Positions 1 through 18,586 of a stretch of DNA of 64,000 nucleotides are shown here, one piece after another. The position numbers and the translations under genes were made by a program. The notes under the pieces were generated by a model. That model saw only the letters and a list, made by a program, of their open reading frames with translations. It searched no databases and had not been told where the DNA came from. The DNA comes from an uncultured Muribaculaceae bacterium (GTDB taxonomy: Bacteria; Bacillota_I; Bacilli_A; RF39; UBA660): the NCBI GenBank assembly GCA_964370755.1, contig CAYJKL010000004.1, forward strand, positions 1,136 through 65,135, in the 5' to 3' direction. Numbering within the stretch: the first letter of the stretch is position 1; every line of letters starts with the position of its first letter.

Positions 1-84
1 TACAGTGAAAAAAAAGGCAGAAAGAACGCCTACTGATATTACTACAATTACAGTCACGTTTAAGTCTCCCGTTGCCTCTTTCAT
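1..84 (-). CDS. Pilin-like protein, paralog of 118..405; only the 5' end is in the window
   Basis: ATG at 84 with GGAG upstream. My translation of the reverse strand gives MKEATGDLNVTVIVVISVGVLSAFFFTV, nearly identical at the N-terminus to the 118..405 product. Confidence 0.5.
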   Translation of the reverse strand, partial: MKEATGDLNVTVIVVISVGVLSAFFFTV

Positions 85-117
85 ATTTATTCTCCTTCGA
101 AATTTTTTTTATGTTAC

Positions 118-405
118 TTATGGCGCGTCAGTTCCACCAGTACCACCAGTACCACCAGTACCTTCTGGACACGAAACATTTGTCTCATCAGTGTCAGTTG
201 CACCATTGCCATCTGCGTCATATGTACAAACTCTATCTGCACCTGTTCCCGTACAAGTACTTGCTATAGCACCATTACAGAACGTTGTTCTATTTAAACT
301 AGTTTGGATAGCTGGCCATACAAATGCGTAAAAAAATGCACCTACTGCTGCAATAGCTACTACTGTAACTACTGTCATATTTAATTCTCCTGTAGCTTCT
401 TTCAT
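118..405 (-). CDS. Candidate Flp/Tad-type major pilin (95 aa)
   Basis: Short charged leader MKEATG, then an acidic residue and about 22 hydrophobic residues. It lies immediately downstream of tadC-like and has RBS GGAGGA. The C-terminal part has 4 Cys and a GTGGTGGTGGT tail. Confidence 0.55.
   Translation of the reverse strand: MKEATGELNMTVVTVVAIAAVGAFFYAFVWPAIQTSLNRTTFCNGAIASTCTGTGADRVCTYDADGNGATDTDETNVSCPEGTGGTGGTGGTDAP
131..162. repeat. In-frame 9-bp tandem repeat (ccaccagta, about 3.5 copies) encoding the (GTG)n tail of the pilin
   Basis: Read directly: ccaccagta at 134-142, 143-151 and 152-160, with partial copies flanking. Confidence 0.9.
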
Positions 406-438
406 ATTCTAATATTCCTCCTTCTATTTTATATATTT

Positions 439-467
439 ATTATACCTAATATTTTATCAAATATCAA
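439..467 (-). promoter_or_regulatory. Sigma-A-type promoter dedicated to the pilin gene(s)
   Basis: Minus strand TTGATA (462-467), 17-nt spacer, TATAAT (439-444), in the 85-nt gap between the tadC-like stop and the pilin start. Confidence 0.45.
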
Positions 468-490: not shown

Positions 491-1279
491 CTAACCGTTC
501 ATCATTTGTAATACTGCTAATATTAGTAATATCATCACACCAAGTCCAGTCGCCATTAACATCTTCATTGTTTTTCCTTCCATCTTCTCAAGTCTGTTTT
601 TATACCTTGTATCTCTTGATTTTTGTTGTAAGCTTGATATTGACTTTGAAAATGTAAGCAGCTGTTCTTGTTTTCTTTCTTGTCTACCGAGTGATAGACG
701 GTAAAGTAAACGCATCATTCTCATAGAATCCCTTACTGGATACTTTTTAGCAAAGTTCATATATGGGTCAATTGAATCGTTTCCTGTATTAATTTCGATA
801 ATTAATTCCCTTAATCCTGGTCTAAATATTTCTGGCGCATCGTCTATTGATTTACCAAGAGCTACCGGTATTGTATAATGTTGTATTAATATCTCAATAC
901 TTTTTAAGTAATGAGGTAGCATTTGGTCAATATGAAACATGTTTCTTTTGTAAAAAGTTTTAAGCTGAGAATATGCTTGTTTAAAAATAAAGTAACCAGC
1001 TAGTAATGATATTACTATTGAAAGTGCTGAAAAATCATTTATAAAAAATAACATTGCGACTCCAGCCGCCATTAAACCATTTCTAATTCTTTGATTAAAT
1101 AATGTTGTAGAATTTACGTTATCGCCGTATCTTGCTCTTACATAAAATTCCCAATCTTCTTCTTTTAATCTTCTGAAAATTGCTTCGTTATCACTTACAA
1201 GTTGAGCAATACTTATTTGACCAGATACTGTCATTACAGTGAATATTATGGCTGCTATAATTACTATTTCAATTTGCAT
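491..1279 (-). CDS. tadC: TadC-like pilus assembly membrane protein (T2SSF-like)
   Basis: 262 aa with N- and C-terminal TM segments flanking a cytoplasmic helical domain. It is adjacent to and coupled with the tadB-like gene and the ATPase. Confidence 0.7.
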   Translation of the reverse strand: MQIEIVIIAAIIFTVMTVSGQISIAQLVSDNEAIFRRLKEEDWEFYVRARYGDNVNSTTLFNQRIRNGLMAAGVAMLFFINDFSALSIVISLLAGYFIFKQAYSQLKTFYKRNMFHIDQMLPHYLKSIEILIQHYTIPVALGKSIDDAPEIFRPGLRELIIEINTGNDSIDPYMNFAKKYPVRDSMRMMRLLYRLSLGRQERKQEQLLTFSKSISSLQQKSRDTRYKNRLEKMEGKTMKMLMATGLGVMILLILAVLQMMNG

Positions 1280-1281
1280 AA

Positions 1282-2187
1282 TTATTCGCCTCCTACATCT
1301 TCATTGTAGTATTTTTCCCCCGTTATTAAGAAATAACCGTTAACTAATAAAACAAAATGTAATATTATCTGAACATAAAAAGTCTCTATAAGTTCTAAGT
1401 AGTTATCTACACCAAACATATATTGAAGTGCAAGTACAAGTAAGAATAATATCATACCAAATCTAATAAATCTTCCGTGAAAATTCTTTCTATCTATTTG
1501 ATCTCGATAAACTCCCTCTACAAGTGCGTCTATATCCATTGACATATTTTCTAATGCTTGACCTGAATCCCTTGCTCCTTCTTTTGTAATTTGAAGAAAT
1601 AATTGATTCATGTTTTTCACCATATAAAACGGGTATTTTTCGTTGAAGTAAATTACTGATTCGTCAATTGTACCATTTTCATATGACATATCTATCATTC
1701 TTTTTACATCTGATAATACTGGATCTTCTAATATTCCTGAATCCCTAACTCCTTCGAGTGATTTTATGAAACTTTGAGTTGTATTAAACTCCATAATAAC
1801 GTTAGTAGTATAAATTTGTATTTGCTCAAATATAAATTCACTATATATTCTTTGACTTCTTAAATAAGATAGATAAGGAATAAAAGAAACAGCTAGCACA
1901 GCATAAACTATGCACAATATTAAACTATGAAAGTAAAAATATGATATTAATCCTGCACCACTTGCAAATATTATAACTTGCGTAGAATATTGTCTTGCCG
2001 AAAATTCTTGACCTAAAGCTTTAGTTTTTTCCCTTACTTCTTTATAAGAATATGGTGCGTATTTATCATACACTGTTGATACTCTATCTACTATAAAATT
2101 ATATATATTTTCACCAGGATTTAATCTGTAAAAAATCACAAATACAGTAATTACTAAGAGTATAACTAATTCTAAACTTGTTCCCAT
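1282..2187 (-). CDS. tadB: TadB-like pilus assembly membrane protein (T2SSF-like)
   Basis: 301 aa with the same TM-cytoplasmic domain-TM layout. It starts 12 nt after the ATPase stop. Confidence 0.7.
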   Translation of the reverse strand: MGTSLELVILLVITVFVIFYRLNPGENIYNFIVDRVSTVYDKYAPYSYKEVREKTKALGQEFSARQYSTQVIIFASGAGLISYFYFHSLILCIVYAVLAVSFIPYLSYLRSQRIYSEFIFEQIQIYTTNVIMEFNTTQSFIKSLEGVRDSGILEDPVLSDVKRMIDMSYENGTIDESVIYFNEKYPFYMVKNMNQLFLQITKEGARDSGQALENMSMDIDALVEGVYRDQIDRKNFHGRFIRFGMILFLLVLALQYMFGVDNYLELIETFYVQIILHFVLLVNGYFLITGEKYYNEDVGGE

Positions 2188-3339: not shown

Positions 3340-4131
3340 TTAATCTGATACTGTATTTGTTTTGATTTCAATGTATGTTTTTATTGTTTGACTTGTTACC
3401 GTTGTTTCACCTTCAGAATCTGTATAGTTACTGTTACGTGGAACTGGTATTATTTCCAGTCCGCTTATAAAACTTGCTTGAGTCAGTAGGTTAAATAAAT
3501 TTTTATCATCATCTGAAGGATCGTCCGGTACTGCGAATAACAGTAGTGCTGATTGTCCTGTTTCAGTATTTTCAAATACATCTTCTTGTGATGAATCCCT
3601 AACTGCTAACACTTCTATTTTTTCGATAAACTTACCAAAATTTATTTCTCCTAAGTCATCTGTATATTTGATATATAAATCTATTCTATCTCCTGGATAA
3701 ATTGAGTTACCATAAGTTGAATTATTATTTACCGGTAAAGAAAATAGTGTATAACCTTCTGGTATATCATCAAATACTGCATTAGGTAATTTACTTTTTT
3801 CAACCACCTGAGTTTGATAAAAGAACCCTGACTTAGGTATTGATGTTCCTGTTGTTATGTATTTTCCTACTAATTCATTTACATTTGTCATGATTGGAAT
3901 TGTGGATAACATTCTTTGATTTATTTCTACGTAACCAATGTTATCTTGAATTATTTCCTCTGTTGCACTAATTGCTTCAAGTGCATAAGGAACTGTTGTT
4001 GGCGCAATAGCATCATTAACCCTCATATTATAAAAGAACCATAGTACTATTACTCCAGCAATTACTCCAAGGATTGTAACTGTATTTTTATTAGATATAA
4101 ATCTTTTAAATCCGCCTAGTATATTCCCCAT
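3340..4131 (-). CDS. CpaB/RcpC-like pilus assembly protein (N-terminal TM, SAF-like domain)
   Basis: N-terminal TM segment. The pattern EGYTLFSLPV...IYPGDRIDLYI resembles the CpaB family, and the gene sits directly upstream of the ATPase. Confidence 0.6.
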   Translation of the reverse strand: MGNILGGFKRFISNKNTVTILGVIAGVIVLWFFYNMRVNDAIAPTTVPYALEAISATEEIIQDNIGYVEINQRMLSTIPIMTNVNELVGKYITTGTSIPKSGFFYQTQVVEKSKLPNAVFDDIPEGYTLFSLPVNNNSTYGNSIYPGDRIDLYIKYTDDLGEINFGKFIEKIEVLAVRDSSQEDVFENTETGQSALLLFAVPDDPSDDDKNLFNLLTQASFISGLEIIPVPRNSNYTDSEGETTVTSQTIKTYIEIKTNTVSD

Positions 4132-4149: not shown

Positions 4150-4560
4150 TTATTCTATTGCTTCTCCTTCAAGTATTGCATCTACAGTATCGACAATATC
4201 AAATGTTTCAGTATCACCTGCTACATTAAATGAACTAGATTTACTTGAGACTTTAACACTGATTTTTGGCGGAGCTTCATATATTTGATAAAATTCAATA
4301 TCATATGTTGTTCCTCCATCGCTAGATTCTGCCATTCTTCTTAAAAAAGTTTCAATAAATTTTTCTTTATTTATTCTTAATTCTCCATATTCTCTATAAT
4401 AAGCATAATCTACAGAATCTACCATTGCAGCTTCCGAAATTTCCCTTACCATTGTATTAGTAATAGTATTACTGTTAGTTAGATTTTGAACTAACAGCAT
4501 TACTACCACAACAAATACTCCTAAAATTATTAACCAATATCCCCAATAAGCATTACTCAT
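4150..4560 (-). CDS. Membrane-anchored hypothetical protein (136 aa) in the Tad operon
   Basis: One N-terminal TM helix and an acidic C-terminus. It starts 13 nt after the 1149-aa gene stop. No family recognised. Confidence 0.5.
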   Translation of the reverse strand: MSNAYWGYWLIILGVFVVVVMLLVQNLTNSNTITNTMVREISEAAMVDSVDYAYYREYGELRINKEKFIETFLRRMAESSDGGTTYDIEFYQIYEAPPKISVKVSSKSSSFNVAGDTETFDIVDTVDAILEGEAIE

Positions 4561-4572
4561 TTATAAAACCTC

Positions 4573-7500
4573 CTATTTCCATGCTGGTCCACCTATAGTA
4601 GACTCTGTTATCTGATTGGGAATTCCCGTTACAAAAAGTTCCCAATAACTACTCGGATCATCTCTATTTATTTGATTGTCATCAGCATCTTTTCCATACT
4701 GGAATTTATCTTTGTGCTCGTCGCTTGTAATCCATTCGCCTAGCGGTTCACTATAGCATAGTAGGTTTTTATAAGTAATTCCATCTACTTTTGCGTTTTG
4801 ACAGTCAAGAGAATTATTTGAGTAACCACCACCTTGATCTTCAACTGTATCAGAACTATTGTAGTTCTTTATTGTATTTACGAGCGCTGGGTCGAGTGTT
4901 ACTGTTAAAAACGGCGTTTCAGCATATATTGCATTGCCTTCAGCTAGTATTCCAGTACTATTTTCATCAATTATCAGATTTCCTGAATTATCAACTCCTG
5001 TAATACCTAGTGTTTTTTGTGCTTTAAGCGAAACAAATCCGTACTTGGTATCTGTTGTATAATTGTAATTCCAGTTATACCCAAGTGGTCTATTATTTGG
5101 ATTAAATGCATCTGGTGAGTATGTTCTATAAACTAAGTTGACTGTTACATCGAATTTACAAGTTGGACAGTAAGGATCTGGTGTATCAAAGTTTCCTTCG
5201 ATATTAATATCACATTCTGGACAATTTATTGGAGCATAACATACATATTCTCCTGTAAATGTGTCTTCTTTTTCCATTACATCATCTACTGATTGATCCG
5301 ATTTATCGTCACCTTTATCCACTAATCTTCCAGTTTCATCACATTCTTCGCTGTAATATTCTCCTAGATTATCAATATTAATTTTATATGTGTATGCACC
5401 ATTTACTGTAGGTCTCATTTCTGTAGGCAAACCGTCTACTACTATCGATTCATCTGTTGCTTCATAAACTATATTTCCATTAGGTACTAGTTGATAATAA
5501 TTTCTTTCGGTTTGATATTTTTCATTATCTGACATAGTCCATTTAATATAATTAGATGTACCTATTGTTATATATTCTTCTGGAAGAGAACATCCTGAAG
5601 TACTACAACTTAGGTATTTGACTTGTTTTGATTGAGCAGTGTAATTTGTAACTAAATTTCCACTACATGTATTATATTCATTACTTCCCAAAGCTCCATC
5701 ACAGTACCATTTTTCTACTGTTGTGGGAGTATTTGTTGTTGATACCATTTCATCTTCAACTTTACTTAAATCATAATATTCTGAATCATATGTATAAGTT
5801 AGTGTTGGATTAAGTTCATAATTAACTGTCCACGTTGAACAAGCTCTGTAATCGCTTATTAATGCGTTAAGTTGATTTTGAAGACTTGTTATTTTTATTG
5901 CTGCGGCTGATGCTGTTGTTTCATAATCGGCTGCCACACTAGTTTGTGTAGTATTTGAACTACAACCCCCTGCAGAAGCTGGATATACTTCACTACTTGA
6001 AGTTGATATTGTAGCCTCCCCATATTCACCAAATGTTATTGAATAGTGTGTATATGTTCCTGAAGAACTATACTTTGTCTTTGATGAAGGTATAGGAAAT
6101 AAACTGCATATCTCCACAGTACCTGCATCATTTTTTAATGAAGTTGCTGTATTGATATTTTTATTATATATATTCATTTGATTAATTAATTCTGTTTGAA
6201 TTGTTTTAATATCACTAACATATTGATCTATTTTAATTTCGCTTGTGTAACATGTTTTTACTCCATATACACTTGCATCTATATTAAAATACCTAGCATT
6301 ATTTACATTTTTTACTGCAGGGAATTTTAAACTATAATCTTCTTTACAGTATACTGCGCAGTAATTATTATTTACTACGGAACCGCCTGATTCAGTTTTT
6401 ATTATACCTGTTTCGCAAGTGTTTTTATATGAATTGCCACCATCATCTAATTTATCAGACCAGGTAGTATCACTTACATTGTCACCTGTTACTGTTGTGG
6501 TTGGAGTCCCTGTAATACATCCTACTATATCAAATGGGTCTTTTACATCAAAATCACCAGTAGAATTTTGATCTATCCATTCATTATCTTCATCTATATC
6601 TGATGGATTTATACAGTAGTTTGGTACTGTTATTTCATTCTTACACATATCTGGACATATTTCAACTTGAGTTGATAAACTTCCATCTATTAAATCTGTA
6701 CCTGTATCTGATCCTTCGTCTAGAAATACTGCAAATGTCTGAACTGCTCCAGTACCAGATAAATACAGAACTTCTGAAGGACTTACATTACCGTTATAAG
6801 AATAATTTATTGTAAAATGAGCGGGTGGACATTCACCATCTGGTATGTTATATACTAATTTGAAATTAATTTCTTTTATAGTATCAAGCGATATGTGTTT
6901 AAGTGCTTCTTCTGCTGCCGCAGTGCTAGTGTATGTTACTTTTGATTCGTCTTTTTTTACAATATCTATATTCATTGTTACTATATTATGTACTTGTGTT
7001 GTGATATAAAGTTTTTGTATATAATTATCACTTTCAAAGTTTGTTGGATTTAAACTTGCTTGAACAACAGATTGTTTTAGTGTTTCATCCACTACATTTG
7101 GTCCTAGTTCATTAACAAATGATGGTGCAGCCGTTACTGAACTACCGTCTTTTTCTTGTTCAATTAAACGAGCTTCTTCTAAAGCAGCATTGATGCCTTT
7201 ACTTATTAATAATTGAATAATAAATGTAAAATAGTTATTTTGATATAAATCATATTTATATCCACCACTTTCCCAAATAGGTGACCCAGATTCATTTAAT
7301 AAAGCACTATGAAAGGTTTTACCAGGGTTATACCAACTTCTTGTTGAGTTAAAATCTTCTTTCATAATATTTACTAAATTTGATAAATCATCAATTGGTT
7401 TATCTGTCATGAATTGTGTTAAATATTTAACATCTTCTTTTTGTTCTGCTGTTGTACTAGGATCATTTGCTATAAACGCCAAATATCCTAGTGCGAAGTC

Positions 7501-8022
7501 TACGTGGGCAGAAGCTGTTGTGCTCCATGTTGAATAACTAGAATCATTAAATATACCAATATAATAGGCTCTTATAGCAACTGATGTAACAAGATATAAT
7601 TCATCATCAGTTAAGGAATAGTTTTTGCCATAAAATTCGAAGTTTTGACTTTCCCCTTGCTTGCTGCCTCCTAAACCGTATTTTAAGATTTCCGCTACTC
7701 CAGCATCCCTAATTCTAGTTTCTTCAAAAGTAACTCCAAAATCATGCTGTTTTAAGTTGTAACCTGACGCGGCTGCTCCAGGATCCAAACAATATGCTGG
7801 TTGATCCAACCATGTACCTATGCTTATTTGATATCTATTTGTTCCATATCCTGACCCAATAGACGTTGCGCTACCGGTGTCTCCAATATTTATTAGTTGA
7901 GTTGTCTTATTACCATAACTTTTCCAAACAGGAGTTTCGTTTATTTCAATGGCATTAACATCATGACTTATAAGTAAAATTGTTAACAATAAAAATAAAT
8001 TATATATTTTAATTTTTTTCAT
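4573..8022 (-). CDS. Large secreted Cys-rich protein (1149 aa), function unknown; candidate pilus-associated adhesin
   Basis: Signal peptide ending HDVNA/IE. Many Cys, including CPECD...CPTCK. No LPXTG motif and no C-terminal TM. The start overlaps the upstream gene by 14 nt. Confidence 0.75.
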   Translation of the reverse strand: MKKIKIYNLFLLLTILLISHDVNAIEINETPVWKSYGNKTTQLINIGDTGSATSIGSGYGTNRYQISIGTWLDQPAYCLDPGAAASGYNLKQHDFGVTFEETRIRDAGVAEILKYGLGGSKQGESQNFEFYGKNYSLTDDELYLVTSVAIRAYYIGIFNDSSYSTWSTTASAHVDFALGYLAFIANDPSTTAEQKEDVKYLTQFMTDKPIDDLSNLVNIMKEDFNSTRSWYNPGKTFHSALLNESGSPIWESGGYKYDLYQNNYFTFIIQLLISKGINAALEEARLIEQEKDGSSVTAAPSFVNELGPNVVDETLKQSVVQASLNPTNFESDNYIQKLYITTQVHNIVTMNIDIVKKDESKVTYTSTAAAEEALKHISLDTIKEINFKLVYNIPDGECPPAHFTINYSYNGNVSPSEVLYLSGTGAVQTFAVFLDEGSDTGTDLIDGSLSTQVEICPDMCKNEITVPNYCINPSDIDEDNEWIDQNSTGDFDVKDPFDIVGCITGTPTTTVTGDNVSDTTWSDKLDDGGNSYKNTCETGIIKTESGGSVVNNNYCAVYCKEDYSLKFPAVKNVNNARYFNIDASVYGVKTCYTSEIKIDQYVSDIKTIQTELINQMNIYNKNINTATSLKNDAGTVEICSLFPIPSSKTKYSSSGTYTHYSITFGEYGEATISTSSSEVYPASAGGCSSNTTQTSVAADYETTASAAAIKITSLQNQLNALISDYRACSTWTVNYELNPTLTYTYDSEYYDLSKVEDEMVSTTNTPTTVEKWYCDGALGSNEYNTCSGNLVTNYTAQSKQVKYLSCSTSGCSLPEEYITIGTSNYIKWTMSDNEKYQTERNYYQLVPNGNIVYEATDESIVVDGLPTEMRPTVNGAYTYKINIDNLGEYYSEECDETGRLVDKGDDKSDQSVDDVMEKEDTFTGEYVCYAPINCPECDINIEGNFDTPDPYCPTCKFDVTVNLVYRTYSPDAFNPNNRPLGYNWNYNYTTDTKYGFVSLKAQKTLGITGVDNSGNLIIDENSTGILAEGNAIYAETPFLTVTLDPALVNTIKNYNSSDTVEDQGGGYSNNSLDCQNAKVDGITYKNLLCYSEPLGEWITSDEHKDKFQYGKDADDNQINRDDPSSYWELFVTGIPNQITESTIGGPAWK

Positions 8023-8743
8023 TTGATTTCTCTCCTATTTTTTTTCTGAATATAATTAAAGAACCTAATAATAATACTACAACAATTATTATTACAATTA
8101 GTAATACGTTATTACTATCATGACTTTCTTCGGTTTCTTCAGCGTCATCTTCTGTCTCAAATTTTTCTTCTTTTAGATCATCTAATTTTTGATAAAAAGA
8201 ATCAGCGGATAAGTTTTCGTTAGTAGTAAATTCTTGACATATTGGTTCATCTTTAAAATCCAAACATTCATCTCTACCACTATACATGTTATATTTTGGC
8301 GTTGTTAAATAAAAAATTTTATTATTCTCGTTAGGGCAGCCTGTTATATCTGAAGTTTTAACTGTAAAAGTATATGTTATTACTTCATTATCATTGTAAC
8401 CTTCCATTGCATATGTTCCTTCAACAAAATCTGTATATAATATAGTTTTTACCTCTGTATTATAATCATTAGTTACTTCTATAGTAAAATTATCTGTCAT
8501 ATTTAATACATTAATACTAATATATGGAACAAATAATTTATAGTCTTCAGCTTCCTCTTCTGTTAAATCTTCTGGTGGTTCGTACATACTAGGATCCAAT
8601 TCTAATTGTAGTATTTCATAATCCACCTTTATTAAATTTGCCTCTGTTTTTAACTCCGATTGCTCCTCTACTGAGCATGCAGAATTTGCATTTACTATTA
8701 GTGGCATTGTTAATAGTAAAAAAGTATATAGTATTTTTTTCAT
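8009..8743 (-). CDS. Secreted acidic protein with a C-terminal TM anchor (244 aa); first gene of the Tad-like operon
   Basis: Signal peptide (LIVNA/NS), an acidic ectodomain, a C-terminal hydrophobic helix and a basic tail (FRKKIGEK). Confidence 0.65.
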   Translation of the reverse strand: MKKILYTFLLLTMPLIVNANSACSVEEQSELKTEANLIKVDYEILQLELDPSMYEPPEDLTEEEAEDYKLFVPYISINVLNMTDNFTIEVTNDYNTEVKTILYTDFVEGTYAMEGYNDNEVITYTFTVKTSDITGCPNENNKIFYLTTPKYNMYSGRDECLDFKDEPICQEFTTNENLSADSFYQKLDDLKEEKFETEDDAEETEESHDSNNVLLIVIIIVVVLLLGSLIIFRKKIGEKSNEKN

Positions 8744-16579: not shown

Positions 16580-18586
16580 TTAGTTATTGTAATAATATAT
16601 TATTTGAACATCTGAAAAATTTCCATCTAATTTGAGGTAACTATCTATTTTTGTCAAATCTATGCTATCTTTAGTATCGTTTAAAAACTTAATTATGTCA
16701 TTATATTCTGTTGTCTCAAAATATATTTCTTCAGTCTTTGGATTTATAATTGTAAATGGTTTATCAATATCTACTACTATTCCAGGTGTGCTTATTAGTC
16801 CGTTTACTGAGTATGTTGGAATTATTTCTGCTATATCTTCTGTAATATCCTTTAACACTTCTGTTAATTCTTCTGAACCAACACTTGATTCATAATATAG
16901 TTTTTCCCCCTCATCATTTTCGCTTGCAAAATTTTTTAAAAAAGATGAGTTTACAGAATCACCAAGTCCAATAGTATATAATTTATTTATATATTCACTT
17001 TTTAAAGTATCAGCTTCTGTAGTACCATCATTTGAAGATCCATCACTTAAGAATATTACAAAAGAGTTTTCTTTATTAAATTCTTCTGGAGCTCCTTTTA
17101 TTACATTTATTGCTTCTGACAACCCACTAGAAAAACTTGTTCCTCCTGATGCATTCATGTCATTTACTATATCGATTACATCATTTTTATCTTCTAAATA
17201 TTCTCCTGCGGTATGAGCTGAAGAGGAGAATATAACTACAGAAAATATAGTTCCTGGTACATAATCCGTATTATCCATCAATACTTTTACTGCATTTTGT
17301 AAAGCATCTAGACCTCTTCCAGCCATACTTCCTGAATCATCTAGCACAAATACAATATGGGATTTTCCAACAGTATTCATATTGTCTTCGTTATATTTAA
17401 TTAAATTTATACTACGGTCATTAAAATTATATTTTGCAGTAAGCGTTATATTTTCAGTTATGTCTTTTGAACTTACGTCTTTTGAACTTGTAATTTTGTT
17501 TCCTAATTCATCATACCATCCATCAAATGTATATCCGTTTTTTTGTGGTATTGAAAGTGGTATATTTGGATCATTTTTATCAAATAATTTTGTTTCATCT
17601 TCAAATTGAGGATTGTCATAAATTATAGTTATTTTTCCTATATCCATTTCGCTTTTATATTTGTTTCCAACATTATCTATTGCGCATAAATACTGAATTC
17701 CTGTAGTGGTTACACTTATGCTTGATGGTAGTGTATCATTTTCATTAAATGTACAGTCTTCATCTCCTAATTTATAACTTTTAAGTCCTGAACCTACATC
17801 AGATACTTTTATTTCTAGTTCTTGAGTTTCGTCAGTGCTTATTTTTTTTGATGTTACTATAGGAGCTGCTTTATCCACTCTAATTCTAGAATCTGTTACA
17901 AACTGATAATCTTTTTCTTCGTGTGTATATTCTAAAGTTACATAAAAATATGCGTCTAATACATCCGTAGGCATTTCAAAAGTTATTTTTTTTCCATTTT
18001 CTAAACTTTCTGTATTCATGTAATATCCATGGTCACTATACCAAGTTAGTTTTACGTTTGTCGCGGTATTTAAATGCTCATTTATCTCTGTTCGATTTAT
18101 TTCTAAATTAAGTTCATTTAATGTTCCGAGCCAATTTTCACATTCTTTTCCATCACATTTTATTTTTATATCATCTTCTTTTGCTTCAAAATATTCGCAT
18201 GAAAAATCCAAATCTTTACTTTCAATTTCGTCTTCATTTTCTAAAGTTACTATGTACTCTCCGTCTTTATATTCTATTTTATACATTAAACAATTTAATT
18301 TTTTTGAATTATCTCTTGGGTCATATATAAAACCATCTGAGTCATCAGCTATAATGTAACCGCCTTTAATTAGTTCATCAATTGTTACGTATGTTATTTT
18401 AGATGTAGCATTTTCAAAAGCAAAAGTTTTAGCTTTACTTTCAATATTCGTAAGTATATTTGTTAGCTGGTTATCTTCTATATCTCTTTTTATGCTAAGA
18501 AATGAACTCGCTGCTATACTAACTATAATAGCAAGCACAATTATTACCGCTAGTAGTTCTGTTAGTGTAAATCCTTTATTATTCAT
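16580..18586 (-). CDS. Modular type IV pilin-like protein with a C-terminal von Willebrand factor A domain
   Basis: Class III prepilin signal MNNKG/FTLTELLAVIIVLAII. It also has a GYTFDGWYDELGN repeat (Listeria-Bacteroides type) and the vWA MIDAS motif VLDDSGSM. Confidence 0.8.
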   Translation of the reverse strand: MNNKGFTLTELLAVIIVLAIIVSIAASSFLSIKRDIEDNQLTNILTNIESKAKTFAFENATSKITYVTIDELIKGGYIIADDSDGFIYDPRDNSKKLNCLMYKIEYKDGEYIVTLENEDEIESKDLDFSCEYFEAKEDDIKIKCDGKECENWLGTLNELNLEINRTEINEHLNTATNVKLTWYSDHGYYMNTESLENGKKITFEMPTDVLDAYFYVTLEYTHEEKDYQFVTDSRIRVDKAAPIVTSKKISTDETQELEIKVSDVGSGLKSYKLGDEDCTFNENDTLPSSISVTTTGIQYLCAIDNVGNKYKSEMDIGKITIIYDNPQFEDETKLFDKNDPNIPLSIPQKNGYTFDGWYDELGNKITSSKDVSSKDITENITLTAKYNFNDRSINLIKYNEDNMNTVGKSHIVFVLDDSGSMAGRGLDALQNAVKVLMDNTDYVPGTIFSVVIFSSSAHTAGEYLEDKNDVIDIVNDMNASGGTSFSSGLSEAINVIKGAPEEFNKENSFVIFLSDGSSNDGTTEADTLKSEYINKLYTIGLGDSVNSSFLKNFASENDEGEKLYYESSVGSEELTEVLKDITEDIAEIIPTYSVNGLISTPGIVVDIDKPFTIINPKTEEIYFETTEYNDIIKFLNDTKDSIDLTKIDSYLKLDGNFSDVQIIYYYNN

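Follow-up and report, generated by a model that had tools for sequence, protein, structure and literature searches.

Candidate leaderless Flp-type pilins encoded behind a divergent Tad-like operon of a small-genome gut bacterium

A 64,000-nucleotide stretch of the genome of an uncultured bacterium of the RF39 lineage (here called the window; contig C4:1136-65135 of a 1.2-Mb genome with 27.6% G+C and 93% completeness) begins with two tandem minus-strand genes for small pilin-like proteins, which start with MKEATGELN and MKEATGDLN and raise the question of whether such proteins have a leader that is removed before assembly. Leader cleavage is regarded as the defining step of the type IV filament superfamily, and the leader motif is the basis of the motif searches by which pilins are found in genomes. 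The original prediction pointed out that this N-terminus, in which an acidic residue follows Gly6 directly, fits neither the Flp (class III) pattern G/xxxxEY nor the type IVa pattern G/FTLxE, and suggested either a new prepilin leader class or an uncleaved anchor. The mismatch is confirmed, as MKEATGELN has no Tyr after its Glu and the G|F-T-L-x-E motif is absent. We conclude that the two genes very probably code for the subunits of a fibre, a divergent pilus of the Tad type. That these subunits are leaderless Flp-type pilins, with no leader to cut, is a reading that we put at even chances from their sequences.

All genes of the pilin locus are on the minus strand. Those on which the argument rests are as follows.

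118..405, minus strand: major pilin 1, 95 amino acids, from the open reading frame listing; helix 10-45, Cys-rich variable C-terminal part and (GTG)n tail
1..84, minus strand: 5' part of major pilin 2, which starts at 84, begins MKEATGDLN and is cut by the window edge
491..1279, minus strand: TadC-like platform protein, 262 amino acids, synteny kept in all related loci
1282..2187, minus strand: TadB-like platform protein, 301 amino acids, with a tblastn match to a Priestia plasmid gene
2199..3317, minus strand: TadA/CpaF/VirB11-type secretion ATPase, 372 amino acids, PF00437 E=5e-29
3340..4131, minus strand: CpaB/RcpC-like protein, 263 amino acids, PF16976 E=1e-5 and TIGR03177 E=2e-6
4150..4560, minus strand: DUF5411 protein, 136 amino acids, with an N-terminal transmembrane helix, PF17424 E=4e-51

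The open reading frames thus show the predicted tandem genes where they were expected, behind a Tad-like operon. Pilin 1 (MKEATGELNMTVVTVVAIAAVGAFFYAFVWPAIQTSLNRTTFCNGAIASTCTGTGADRVCTYDADGNGATDTDETNVSCPEGTGGTGGTGGTDAP, with the N-terminus MKEATGELNMTVVTVVAIAAVGAFF) opens at the first start codon past a stop and has no in-frame start further upstream. Pilin 2, which is complete on the contig (C4:977-1219), has 80 amino acids and starts MKEATGDLNVTVIVVISVGVLSAFF / MKEATGDLNVTVIVV. Downstream of it are two larger pilin-like genes, for proteins of 157 (MKEGIGGVFLF) and 143 (MKQAVGSTWTF) amino acids. The machinery beside the pilins is a Tad variant, with a TadA/CpaF ATPase, TadB- and TadC-like platform proteins and a CpaB-like protein. 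NCBIfam models of VirB11 and the TadA family also match the ATPase, below their cut-offs, and the PF16976 score of the CpaB/RcpC-like protein (25.7 bits) is just under the 28.8-bit cut-off. The TadB-like protein matches a Priestia plasmid gene annotated 'type II secretion system F family protein' (tblastn E=3e-4, coverage 82%), while the TadC-like protein has no Pfam match and is assigned by position and synteny only.

The pilin family is large and, by its annotation, nameless: it comprises 1,894 homologous clusters at 90% identity, among which there is no Pfam domain and no name other than "hypothetical protein". At least 587 occurrences of the pattern MKEA[TAS]GE[AL]N were counted in contigs from one genome per species, at least 438 of which were confirmed as relatives; the records are of uncultured Bacilli, Tenericutes or Mollicutes, Clostridium sp. 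CAG:628, CAG:609 and CAG:1000, and Candidatus Coprovivens. Within the bacterial family to which the window belongs, the pilin is found in 104 of 151 sampled genera and, in a separate sample, a TadB-like gene in 43 of 49 genomes. In about 50 loci of different genera the order is constant: DUF5411, CpaB-like, TadA, TadB-like and TadC-like genes, followed by one or two small pilins and by one or two pilin-like genes of 135-170 amino acids.

Conservation is concentrated at the N-terminus, as had been predicted for tad-linked homologues. Across genera, M1, K2, E3, A4, G6, E7, N9 and T11 of the major pilins are invariant or nearly so, and the first six residues are MKEATG in 115 of the 120 best homologues of pilin 1. 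The synonymous codons at positions 3-6 vary freely, with all four codons of Ala, Thr and Gly in use, and selection therefore acts on the protein. The C-terminal part cannot be aligned across genera except for its cysteines, whose number is even in 118 of the 120 homologues; these even counts fit disulfides that would form outside the cell. While pilin 1 carries a Cys-rich extension on the one long helix that is modelled, some family members have just 47-58 amino acids and end about 15 residues past the helix, which is the size of Flp, whose mature one-helix subunits have roughly 40-60 residues.

Evidence on how this N-terminus relates to that of Flp pilins comes from a second family. Searches with the TadB-like protein across the class revealed divergent Tad-like loci in other bacterial families, where the pilin genes encode proteins of 46-60 amino acids that start MKAFFEEYGLV, MKAFIEEYG, MKLFIEEYG or MKEILQEYGG. 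These proteins (here the MKxFxEEYG family) hold the Flp motif Glu-Tyr-Gly-Leu, have only Met-Lys ahead of the would-be mature residue 1 and possess no upstream Gly. A profile of 14 of them retrieved 361 cluster representatives among 1.84 billion proteins. Among the 145 matches listed that bear the motif, it stands at a residue-1 start in 141, and M1 is found in 145, K2 in 142, E7 in 140, Y8 in 143 and G9 in 145, while position 6 is E (131), Q, S, D, G, N or A. The members with names are all "hypothetical protein", e.g., in Erysipelotrichaceae metagenome-assembled genomes, and neither the motif string of this family nor that of the window's family turned up in a literature search. A word-index homologue search with a 58-amino-acid MKAFFEEYG pilin returned only two proteins, and tblastn against plasmids with the DUF5411 protein and with an MKAFFEEYG pilin gave no match. 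About 25 of the best 150 MKxFxEEYG proteins (e.g., P0201, P0211, P0222 and P0226) are 150-400 amino acids long, with the leaderless Flp-like N-terminus fused to a large C-terminal part.

The pilins of the window share with this leaderless Flp-like family the Met-Lys start, Glu7, the single helix and the Tad-like locus; Tyr8-Gly9 is not kept. Bridging forms, MKEFIGEYG and MKEFLGEYG, combine the Gly6-Glu7 of the window's pilins with the Tyr-Gly of Flp, and one of the genes for them lies directly before a T2SSE ATPase gene and a fused platform gene. By their spacing, Gly6 in these forms cannot be the residue at -1, where it would destroy the G/xxxxEY arrangement. The metagenome contig with the MKEFLGEYG pilin also carries, about 3.6 kb upstream in the same orientation and among small unannotated genes, a signal peptidase I (Peptidase_S26) gene (L101:5867-6403).

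Profile alignments place the families in one register. With hhalign, the window's family aligns with the MKxFxEEYG family ungapped from Met1, Glu7 on Glu7 (E=1.8e-4, probability 48%), and the MKxFxEEYG family aligns with canonical Flp of the same class so that EEYGL lies on VEYGL and Glu7 on Flp Glu+5 (E=1.1e-3, probability 21%). Because the window's family and canonical Flp showed no significant similarity when their profiles were compared directly, the register rests on this two-step chain and on the bridging sequences. Since Glu7 aligns with Flp Glu+5, Gly6 would correspond to mature position +4 and not to -1.

Substitutions at Gly6 point the same way. Homologues of the second paralogue in related genomes start MKEATGELNA, MKQAVGELNA, MKEATQEVNM or MKEAISELNL, so that Gly6 is replaced in two major-type paralogues (MKEATQEVN and MKEAISELN). 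Position 6 of the minor pilins is Ser or Asn in 7 of 55, and in their plasmid homologues (Pfam DUF4320), which start MSEAIQY and MSEGVNV, it is Gln or Asn. Glu7 is retained in every major pilin seen.

The tag also differs from the true leaders of the same organism. In 39 homologues of a canonical prepilin of the source genome, used as a control, the mature FTLIELLAVI is invariant and the leaders, of 4-11 residues, come in 26 distinct forms; MKEATG is nearly invariant and of fixed length, and the tag thus evolves like mature sequence, in a comparison whose two samples are top matches of the same type of search and are both biased to similar sequences.

Based on these observations, we propose that the major subunits of a divergent Tad-like (type IVc-like) filament of small-genome gut Bacilli are the products of these two genes, and that the two larger downstream genes encode minor subunits. 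Flp-type pilins would here have lost the class III leader, with translation beginning two residues (Met-Lys) ahead of the canonical mature N-terminus; Glu7 would be the counterpart of the Flp/type IV Glu+5, Gly6 would be mature +4, and Leu8-Asn9 would take the place of Flp Tyr6-Gly7. The subunit may enter the membrane via its single hydrophobic helix, with its short N-terminus on the cytoplasmic side and the Cys-rich part exposed outside the cell, and the TadA ATPase and the TadB/TadC-like platform may then extract and polymerise it with no prior cut by a prepilin peptidase. We infer filament formation, the absence of cleavage and a compensation of charge: two positive charges (the amine and Lys2) would be balanced by Glu3 and Glu7, or by Glu6 and Glu7 in the MKxFxEEYG family, and a net-neutral N-terminus could be taken uncut into the hydrophobic core of the filament. 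The Caulobacter Tad pilus has a tightly packed core made by the N-terminal eight residues, in which Glu5 is reported to point outward and not to pair with the N-terminus of a neighbour (PMC10710030), and a two-residue extension is for that reason less implausible than one in type IVa pili would be. The hypervariable C-terminal part, with its even number of cysteines and sometimes a low-complexity tail, would be the exposed surface of the fibre.

Several findings weigh against the proposal that these pilins are used uncut. Apart from the non-significant direct comparison with Flp, the two profile alignments given above are short and only moderately significant, and past Glu7 the hydrophobic segment exceeds that of the MKxFxEEYG family by about six residues. 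Gly6 is invariant in nearly all majors and in 48 of 55 minors, and a six-residue tag with a Lys has the typical length of a type IVa/Com prepilin leader. Weak alignments to solved type IVa pilins set the register near Gly6 as position 1, with cleavage just before or after it. Cleavage would be possible throughout the bacterial family, where 149 of 151 genomes have a PilD-type peptidase. Finally, the model of the 143-amino-acid minor subunit had no significant Foldseek match in the PDB (best E=0.27) and none to a pilin.

A different explanation is a new short class III leader, removed by the housekeeping A24 peptidase of PilD/ComC type through a cut behind Gly6 (MKEATG|E) to give a mature pilin that starts with Glu or Asp and lacks Glu5. 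It gains from the presence of Gly6 in each of the operon's four pilin-like genes and in almost every major homologue, from the leader-like length of the tag with its Lys2, and from a bifunctional-type A24 peptidase in the source genome, in 149 of 151 relatives and in every pilin-positive genome of at least 90% completeness. Even so, we regard it as less likely than the leaderless reading. In natural paralogues Q, S or N replaces Gly6, and in homologous families E or Q does, with Glu7 retained; residues 1-5 are under far tighter constraint than the real leaders of the same organisms; and we know of no precedent for a mature pilin that starts with Glu and has no Glu5.

The presence of the peptidase offers no decision, but its substrates and the lack of a peptidase gene in the pilin loci speak for the leaderless reading. 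The source genome has a single A24 gene, of the PilD/ComC type (A24_N_bact and Peptidase_A24 domains), beside a PilC-like gene on contig C5; no dedicated prepilin peptidase gene (TadV/CpaA) lies in the pilin locus, nor any A24 gene in the related loci examined. Its evident substrates are six canonical N_methyl prepilins of the form [NKS][KN]G|F/L-[TS]-x-x-E (e.g., MNNKG|FTLTE, MKFIKSSKG|FTLIE and MKLNNKG|LSIVE), from which the Tad-like pilins differ at -2, +1 and +5. Since A24 genes are nearly universal with or without the pilin (149 versus 104 of 151 genomes), and the peptidase is just as frequent in genomes that lack these pilins, its co-occurrence neither supports nor excludes cleavage and was rejected as a discriminating test; the same holds for five genomes with MKAFFEEYG pilins. 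The six prepilin genes are dispersed (C1:~10643, C10:~1118, C15:~21535, C20:~6162, C45:~3232 and window 16580-18586), and one of them encodes a 664-amino-acid modular pilin.

Canonical Flp loci of the same class are arranged differently. In genomes G404 and G312, the Flp proteins read ...DESGQG|MVEYGL and an A24 gene directly adjoins their genes, and Bulleidia extructa has a tad operon that starts with tadV (PMC12786226). Genome G138, of the window's own bacterial family, has a canonical Flp (...KRGQ|ALVEY) in a locus (L093; G138:C16:23737-25575) with two TadE-like genes (MMKKGQ|ALVEF) and a ParA/TadZ-like gene, and both types of pilin can therefore coexist in the family.

Of the two possibilities first suggested, a new leader class, with Gly6 at -1 and an acidic residue after the cut, is thus probably wrong, given that M1, K2 and Glu7 are conserved in the wider family, position 6 is variable and Glu7 aligns with Flp Glu+5. 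An uncleaved N-terminus accounts for the data better, though as part of a filament subunit rather than of a mere anchor.

That the proteins are not filament subunits at all is improbable. They would then be anchored small bitopic membrane proteins, or secreted Cys-rich peptides with an N-terminus that acts as signal or leader in the manner of bacteriocin precursors, for which the conserved N-terminal 30 residues, the Cys-rich and hypervariable C-terminal part, and the Lys or Arg found directly after the hydrophobic helix in many homologues could be cited. Structure prediction, made on single chains, bears on this point in both directions. AlphaFold2 gave pilin 1 (90-sequence alignment) a single confident helix at 10-45, with pLDDT (predicted local distance difference test) above 90 at residues 11-30 and an unreliable C-terminal part. 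The 143-amino-acid protein was modelled with a long N-terminal helix (3-47), a short second helix and a three-stranded sheet (pLDDT 81.5, predicted template-modelling score 0.72), an order of elements that, in the model, is that of type IV pilins. Neither model has a Foldseek match to solved pilins, pilin 1 having none at all in the PDB. In profile searches, the best PDB matches of pilin 1, all weak, are type IV pilins (8pfb PilE1, E=0.023), and another profile search of solved structures found nothing.

Family models were equally silent. Flp_Fap (PF04964) matched neither pilin 1, pilin 2 nor 28 diverse members even at E<=10, while canonical Flp of the same class scores 56 bits, and Flp1_like (PF16982) had nothing above the cut-off anywhere in the class; one faint match to it was set aside. 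Pilin 1 has no Pfam or NCBIfam match, N_methyl (PF07963) included, and of the archaeal type IV pilin models (PF07790 and PF04021) only PF07790 appeared, faintly, in 8 of the 28 members (best E=0.016). The proteins are accordingly called pilin-like on their context and architecture and not on a fold match. It is these that argue against a non-filament role: the fixed place right behind the ATPase and platform genes in about 50 loci of different genera, the Flp-sized members that end some 15 residues after the helix, the homology to a family with the Flp EYG motif, and the accompanying minor subunits with the same N-terminal pattern and a helix-plus-sheet model. Nor is there an AxA-type signal-peptidase site after the helix. 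The original suggestion of pilin-like genes behind a Tad-like machine is hence upheld by machinery and synteny.

Processing elsewhere or by another enzyme, such as removal of Met-Lys only or a cut by a protease encoded outside the locus, is very improbable, because, although Met1-Lys2 is invariant in both families and the charge balance would also work once two residues are removed, the loci share no candidate enzyme, a Met that precedes Lys is not a substrate of methionine aminopeptidase, and A24 peptidases require Gly or Ala at -1.

The signals ahead of pilin 1 are consistent with a gene expressed at a level of its own.

439..467, minus strand: sigma-70-type promoter TTGATA-17-TATAAT, within the 85-nucleotide gap from the TadC-like gene to pilin 1
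417..421, minus strand: Shine-Dalgarno sequence GGAGG, 11 nucleotides 5' of the pilin 1 ATG

The promoter, which had been predicted in this gap, has 11 of 12 matches and is the best site of the first 9 kb, where promoter-like sites in total are not above those of shuffled sequence. It is supported by the conservation of its position: in the corresponding TadC-pilin gaps of 44 related loci (median 75 nucleotides), 31 have a pair that matches at 10 or more of the 12 positions, and the end of the -10 box usually lies about 24-44 nucleotides 5' of the ATG. An internal promoter ahead of the pilin genes would give an excess of subunit over machinery. Within the coding region of pilin 2 (window 15-31, minus strand; the GVLSAFFF part) there is also a terminator-like hairpin with a T-run, probably a chance match from Phe codons.

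The remaining features noted at the outset lie in the C-terminal part of pilin 1, and all of them are present in the sequence: four cysteines (C43, C51, C60 and C79), an Asp-rich stretch (DADGNGATDTDE) and a tail (EGTGGTGGTGGTDAP) encoded in part by a repeat.

129..162, minus strand: in-frame 9-bp tandem repeat (CAGTACCAC-type), three copies and a partial one, encoding GTGGTGGTGGT in the C-terminal tail of pilin 1

The Asp-rich loop (D-x-[DN]-x-[DN]-G) occurs in 11 of the 120 homologues, with the motif C-[ST]-Y-D-x-[DN]-G-[DN]-G, which we take to resemble a DxDxDG calcium-binding loop. The predicted likeness to a calcium loop is not a general feature and fits a sub-clade only, and the motif lies where confidence in the model is low. 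Tandem low-complexity tails (GTG, GT, GA, GS or Asn runs) are found in 5 of the 120 homologues and tails rich in G/S/T/N/P/A/Q in 12 of 75 loci, and tails are therefore gained and lost between species. Length differences inside one 90% cluster were rejected as tail variation, being a mix of two paralogues. At codons 7-11 of pilin 1 (window 373-387, minus strand), the nearly invariant Glu/Asp-x-Asn-x-Thr fits the extended bacterial N-glycosylation sequon; glycosylation at N9-x-T11 was rejected, since the site is within the hydrophobic helix and the source genome, 93% complete, has no STT3/PglB homologue.

The operon extends in both directions from the genes discussed so far, with two leading genes inside the window.

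4573..8743, minus strand: two leading operon genes, from open reading frames, for a 244-amino-acid anchored acidic protein and a 1149-amino-acid secreted Cys-rich protein

At the other end, contigs C4 and C31 overlap at their starts, in reverse complement, and the operon goes on beyond window position 1 at C31:16-1473. It encodes there a 337-amino-acid protein without a family match that is kept in all related loci (MNVI[IV]SNK...ILD[IV]TAIK), followed by a 129-amino-acid two-helix protein that matches Pfam T4SS_pilin (VirB2-like; E=2e-5, 25 bits versus a cut-off of 26.6). In many relatives, one or two small VirB2-like genes come after the pilin module, together with a gene for a membrane protein of 670-990 amino acids matching TrbL_4 (VirB6-like; E=3e-10); the source genome lacks this VirB6-like part.

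If true, leaderless pilins would be unusual, as they would drop the defining step of their filament superfamily. Should these pilins be used uncut, pilin-finding tools would miss a family present in hundreds of gut species, whose hosts are uncultured bacteria that are common in the gut communities of humans and animals. The leader's role in orientation and in blocking premature assembly would then be met otherwise, maybe by the net-neutral N-terminus. Unrecognised VirB11-linked modules of Gram-positive conjugative plasmids (e.g., pLS20) may likewise build a small filament. More tentatively, and at slightly less than even chances, we suggest from the sequences that a whole branch of type IV filaments makes pilins without a leader and assembles them independently of a prepilin peptidase; the branch would take in the MKEATGE pilins from RF39-type gut Bacilli, those with MKxFxEEYG from Erysipelotrichaceae-type genomes and, possibly, the plasmid modules. 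New here are the register argument, the sister family, the leader control and the PilD-type peptidase elsewhere in the genome.

Among known systems, the closest are the Flp pilins of Tad (type IVc) pili, such as Aggregatibacter Flp1, Caulobacter PilA and those of the Flp/TadV loci of Erysipelotrichales. Shared with them are small one-helix subunits (some members having 47-58 amino acids) encoded together with CpaF/TadA, TadB/TadC and CpaB, a conserved Glu at the start of the hydrophobic helix, larger TadE/F-like minor subunits and an internal promoter for high pilin expression. Unlike Flp, the window's pilins have Met-Lys only in place of a leader, lack G/xxxxEY and a Pfam Flp_Fap match, and carry Leu-Asn instead of Tyr6-Gly7. 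Their locus has no TadV gene, many members add a disulfide-rich variable C-terminal part, and the operon adds DUF5411, a large secreted adhesin-like protein, the 337-amino-acid protein and the VirB2-like protein. The MKxF(F/L)EEYG family of Erysipelotrichaceae-type genomes has the same Met-Lys start, a fixed Glu7 and a locus with CpaB/TadA, separate or fused TadB/C and no peptidase gene; it differs from the window's pilins by the Flp Tyr-Gly after Glu7, the Glu at position 6, a shorter helix and the absence of a Cys-rich part.

Type IVa/Com prepilins (N_methyl, PF07963) resemble the window's pilins in a short tag that ends in Gly and precedes a hydrophobic helix, and their peptidase is in the genome. 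Their leaders, however, vary in length and end in K/N-G before a mature F/L-T-L-x-E, whereas in the Tad-like pilins T/I-G is followed by E/G/S, and +5 is not a Glu.

The operon is also similar to modules of Gram-positive plasmids (a Priestia koreensis plasmid and B. thuringiensis pBMB67), in which genes for a large adhesin-like protein, DUF5411, a SAF/CpaB protein, sometimes a TadZ-like ATPase, CpaF/VirB11, a type II secretion system F-like protein and a second polytopic protein are followed by small proteins with one transmembrane segment; their minor-pilin homologues (DUF4320) start MSEAIQ and MSEGVN. By a published gene table, genes 34-41 of pLS20, a conjugative plasmid of Bacillus subtilis, match in sizes and topologies; according to the authors of the table, pilus components are missing from the plasmid (PMC8557374). 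The plasmid module belongs to a conjugation operon that also encodes VirB4, VirD4, VirB6 and VirB8, whereas the operon in the window is chromosomal, is conserved across its bacterial family and is followed, in the source genome, by a VirB2-like gene only.

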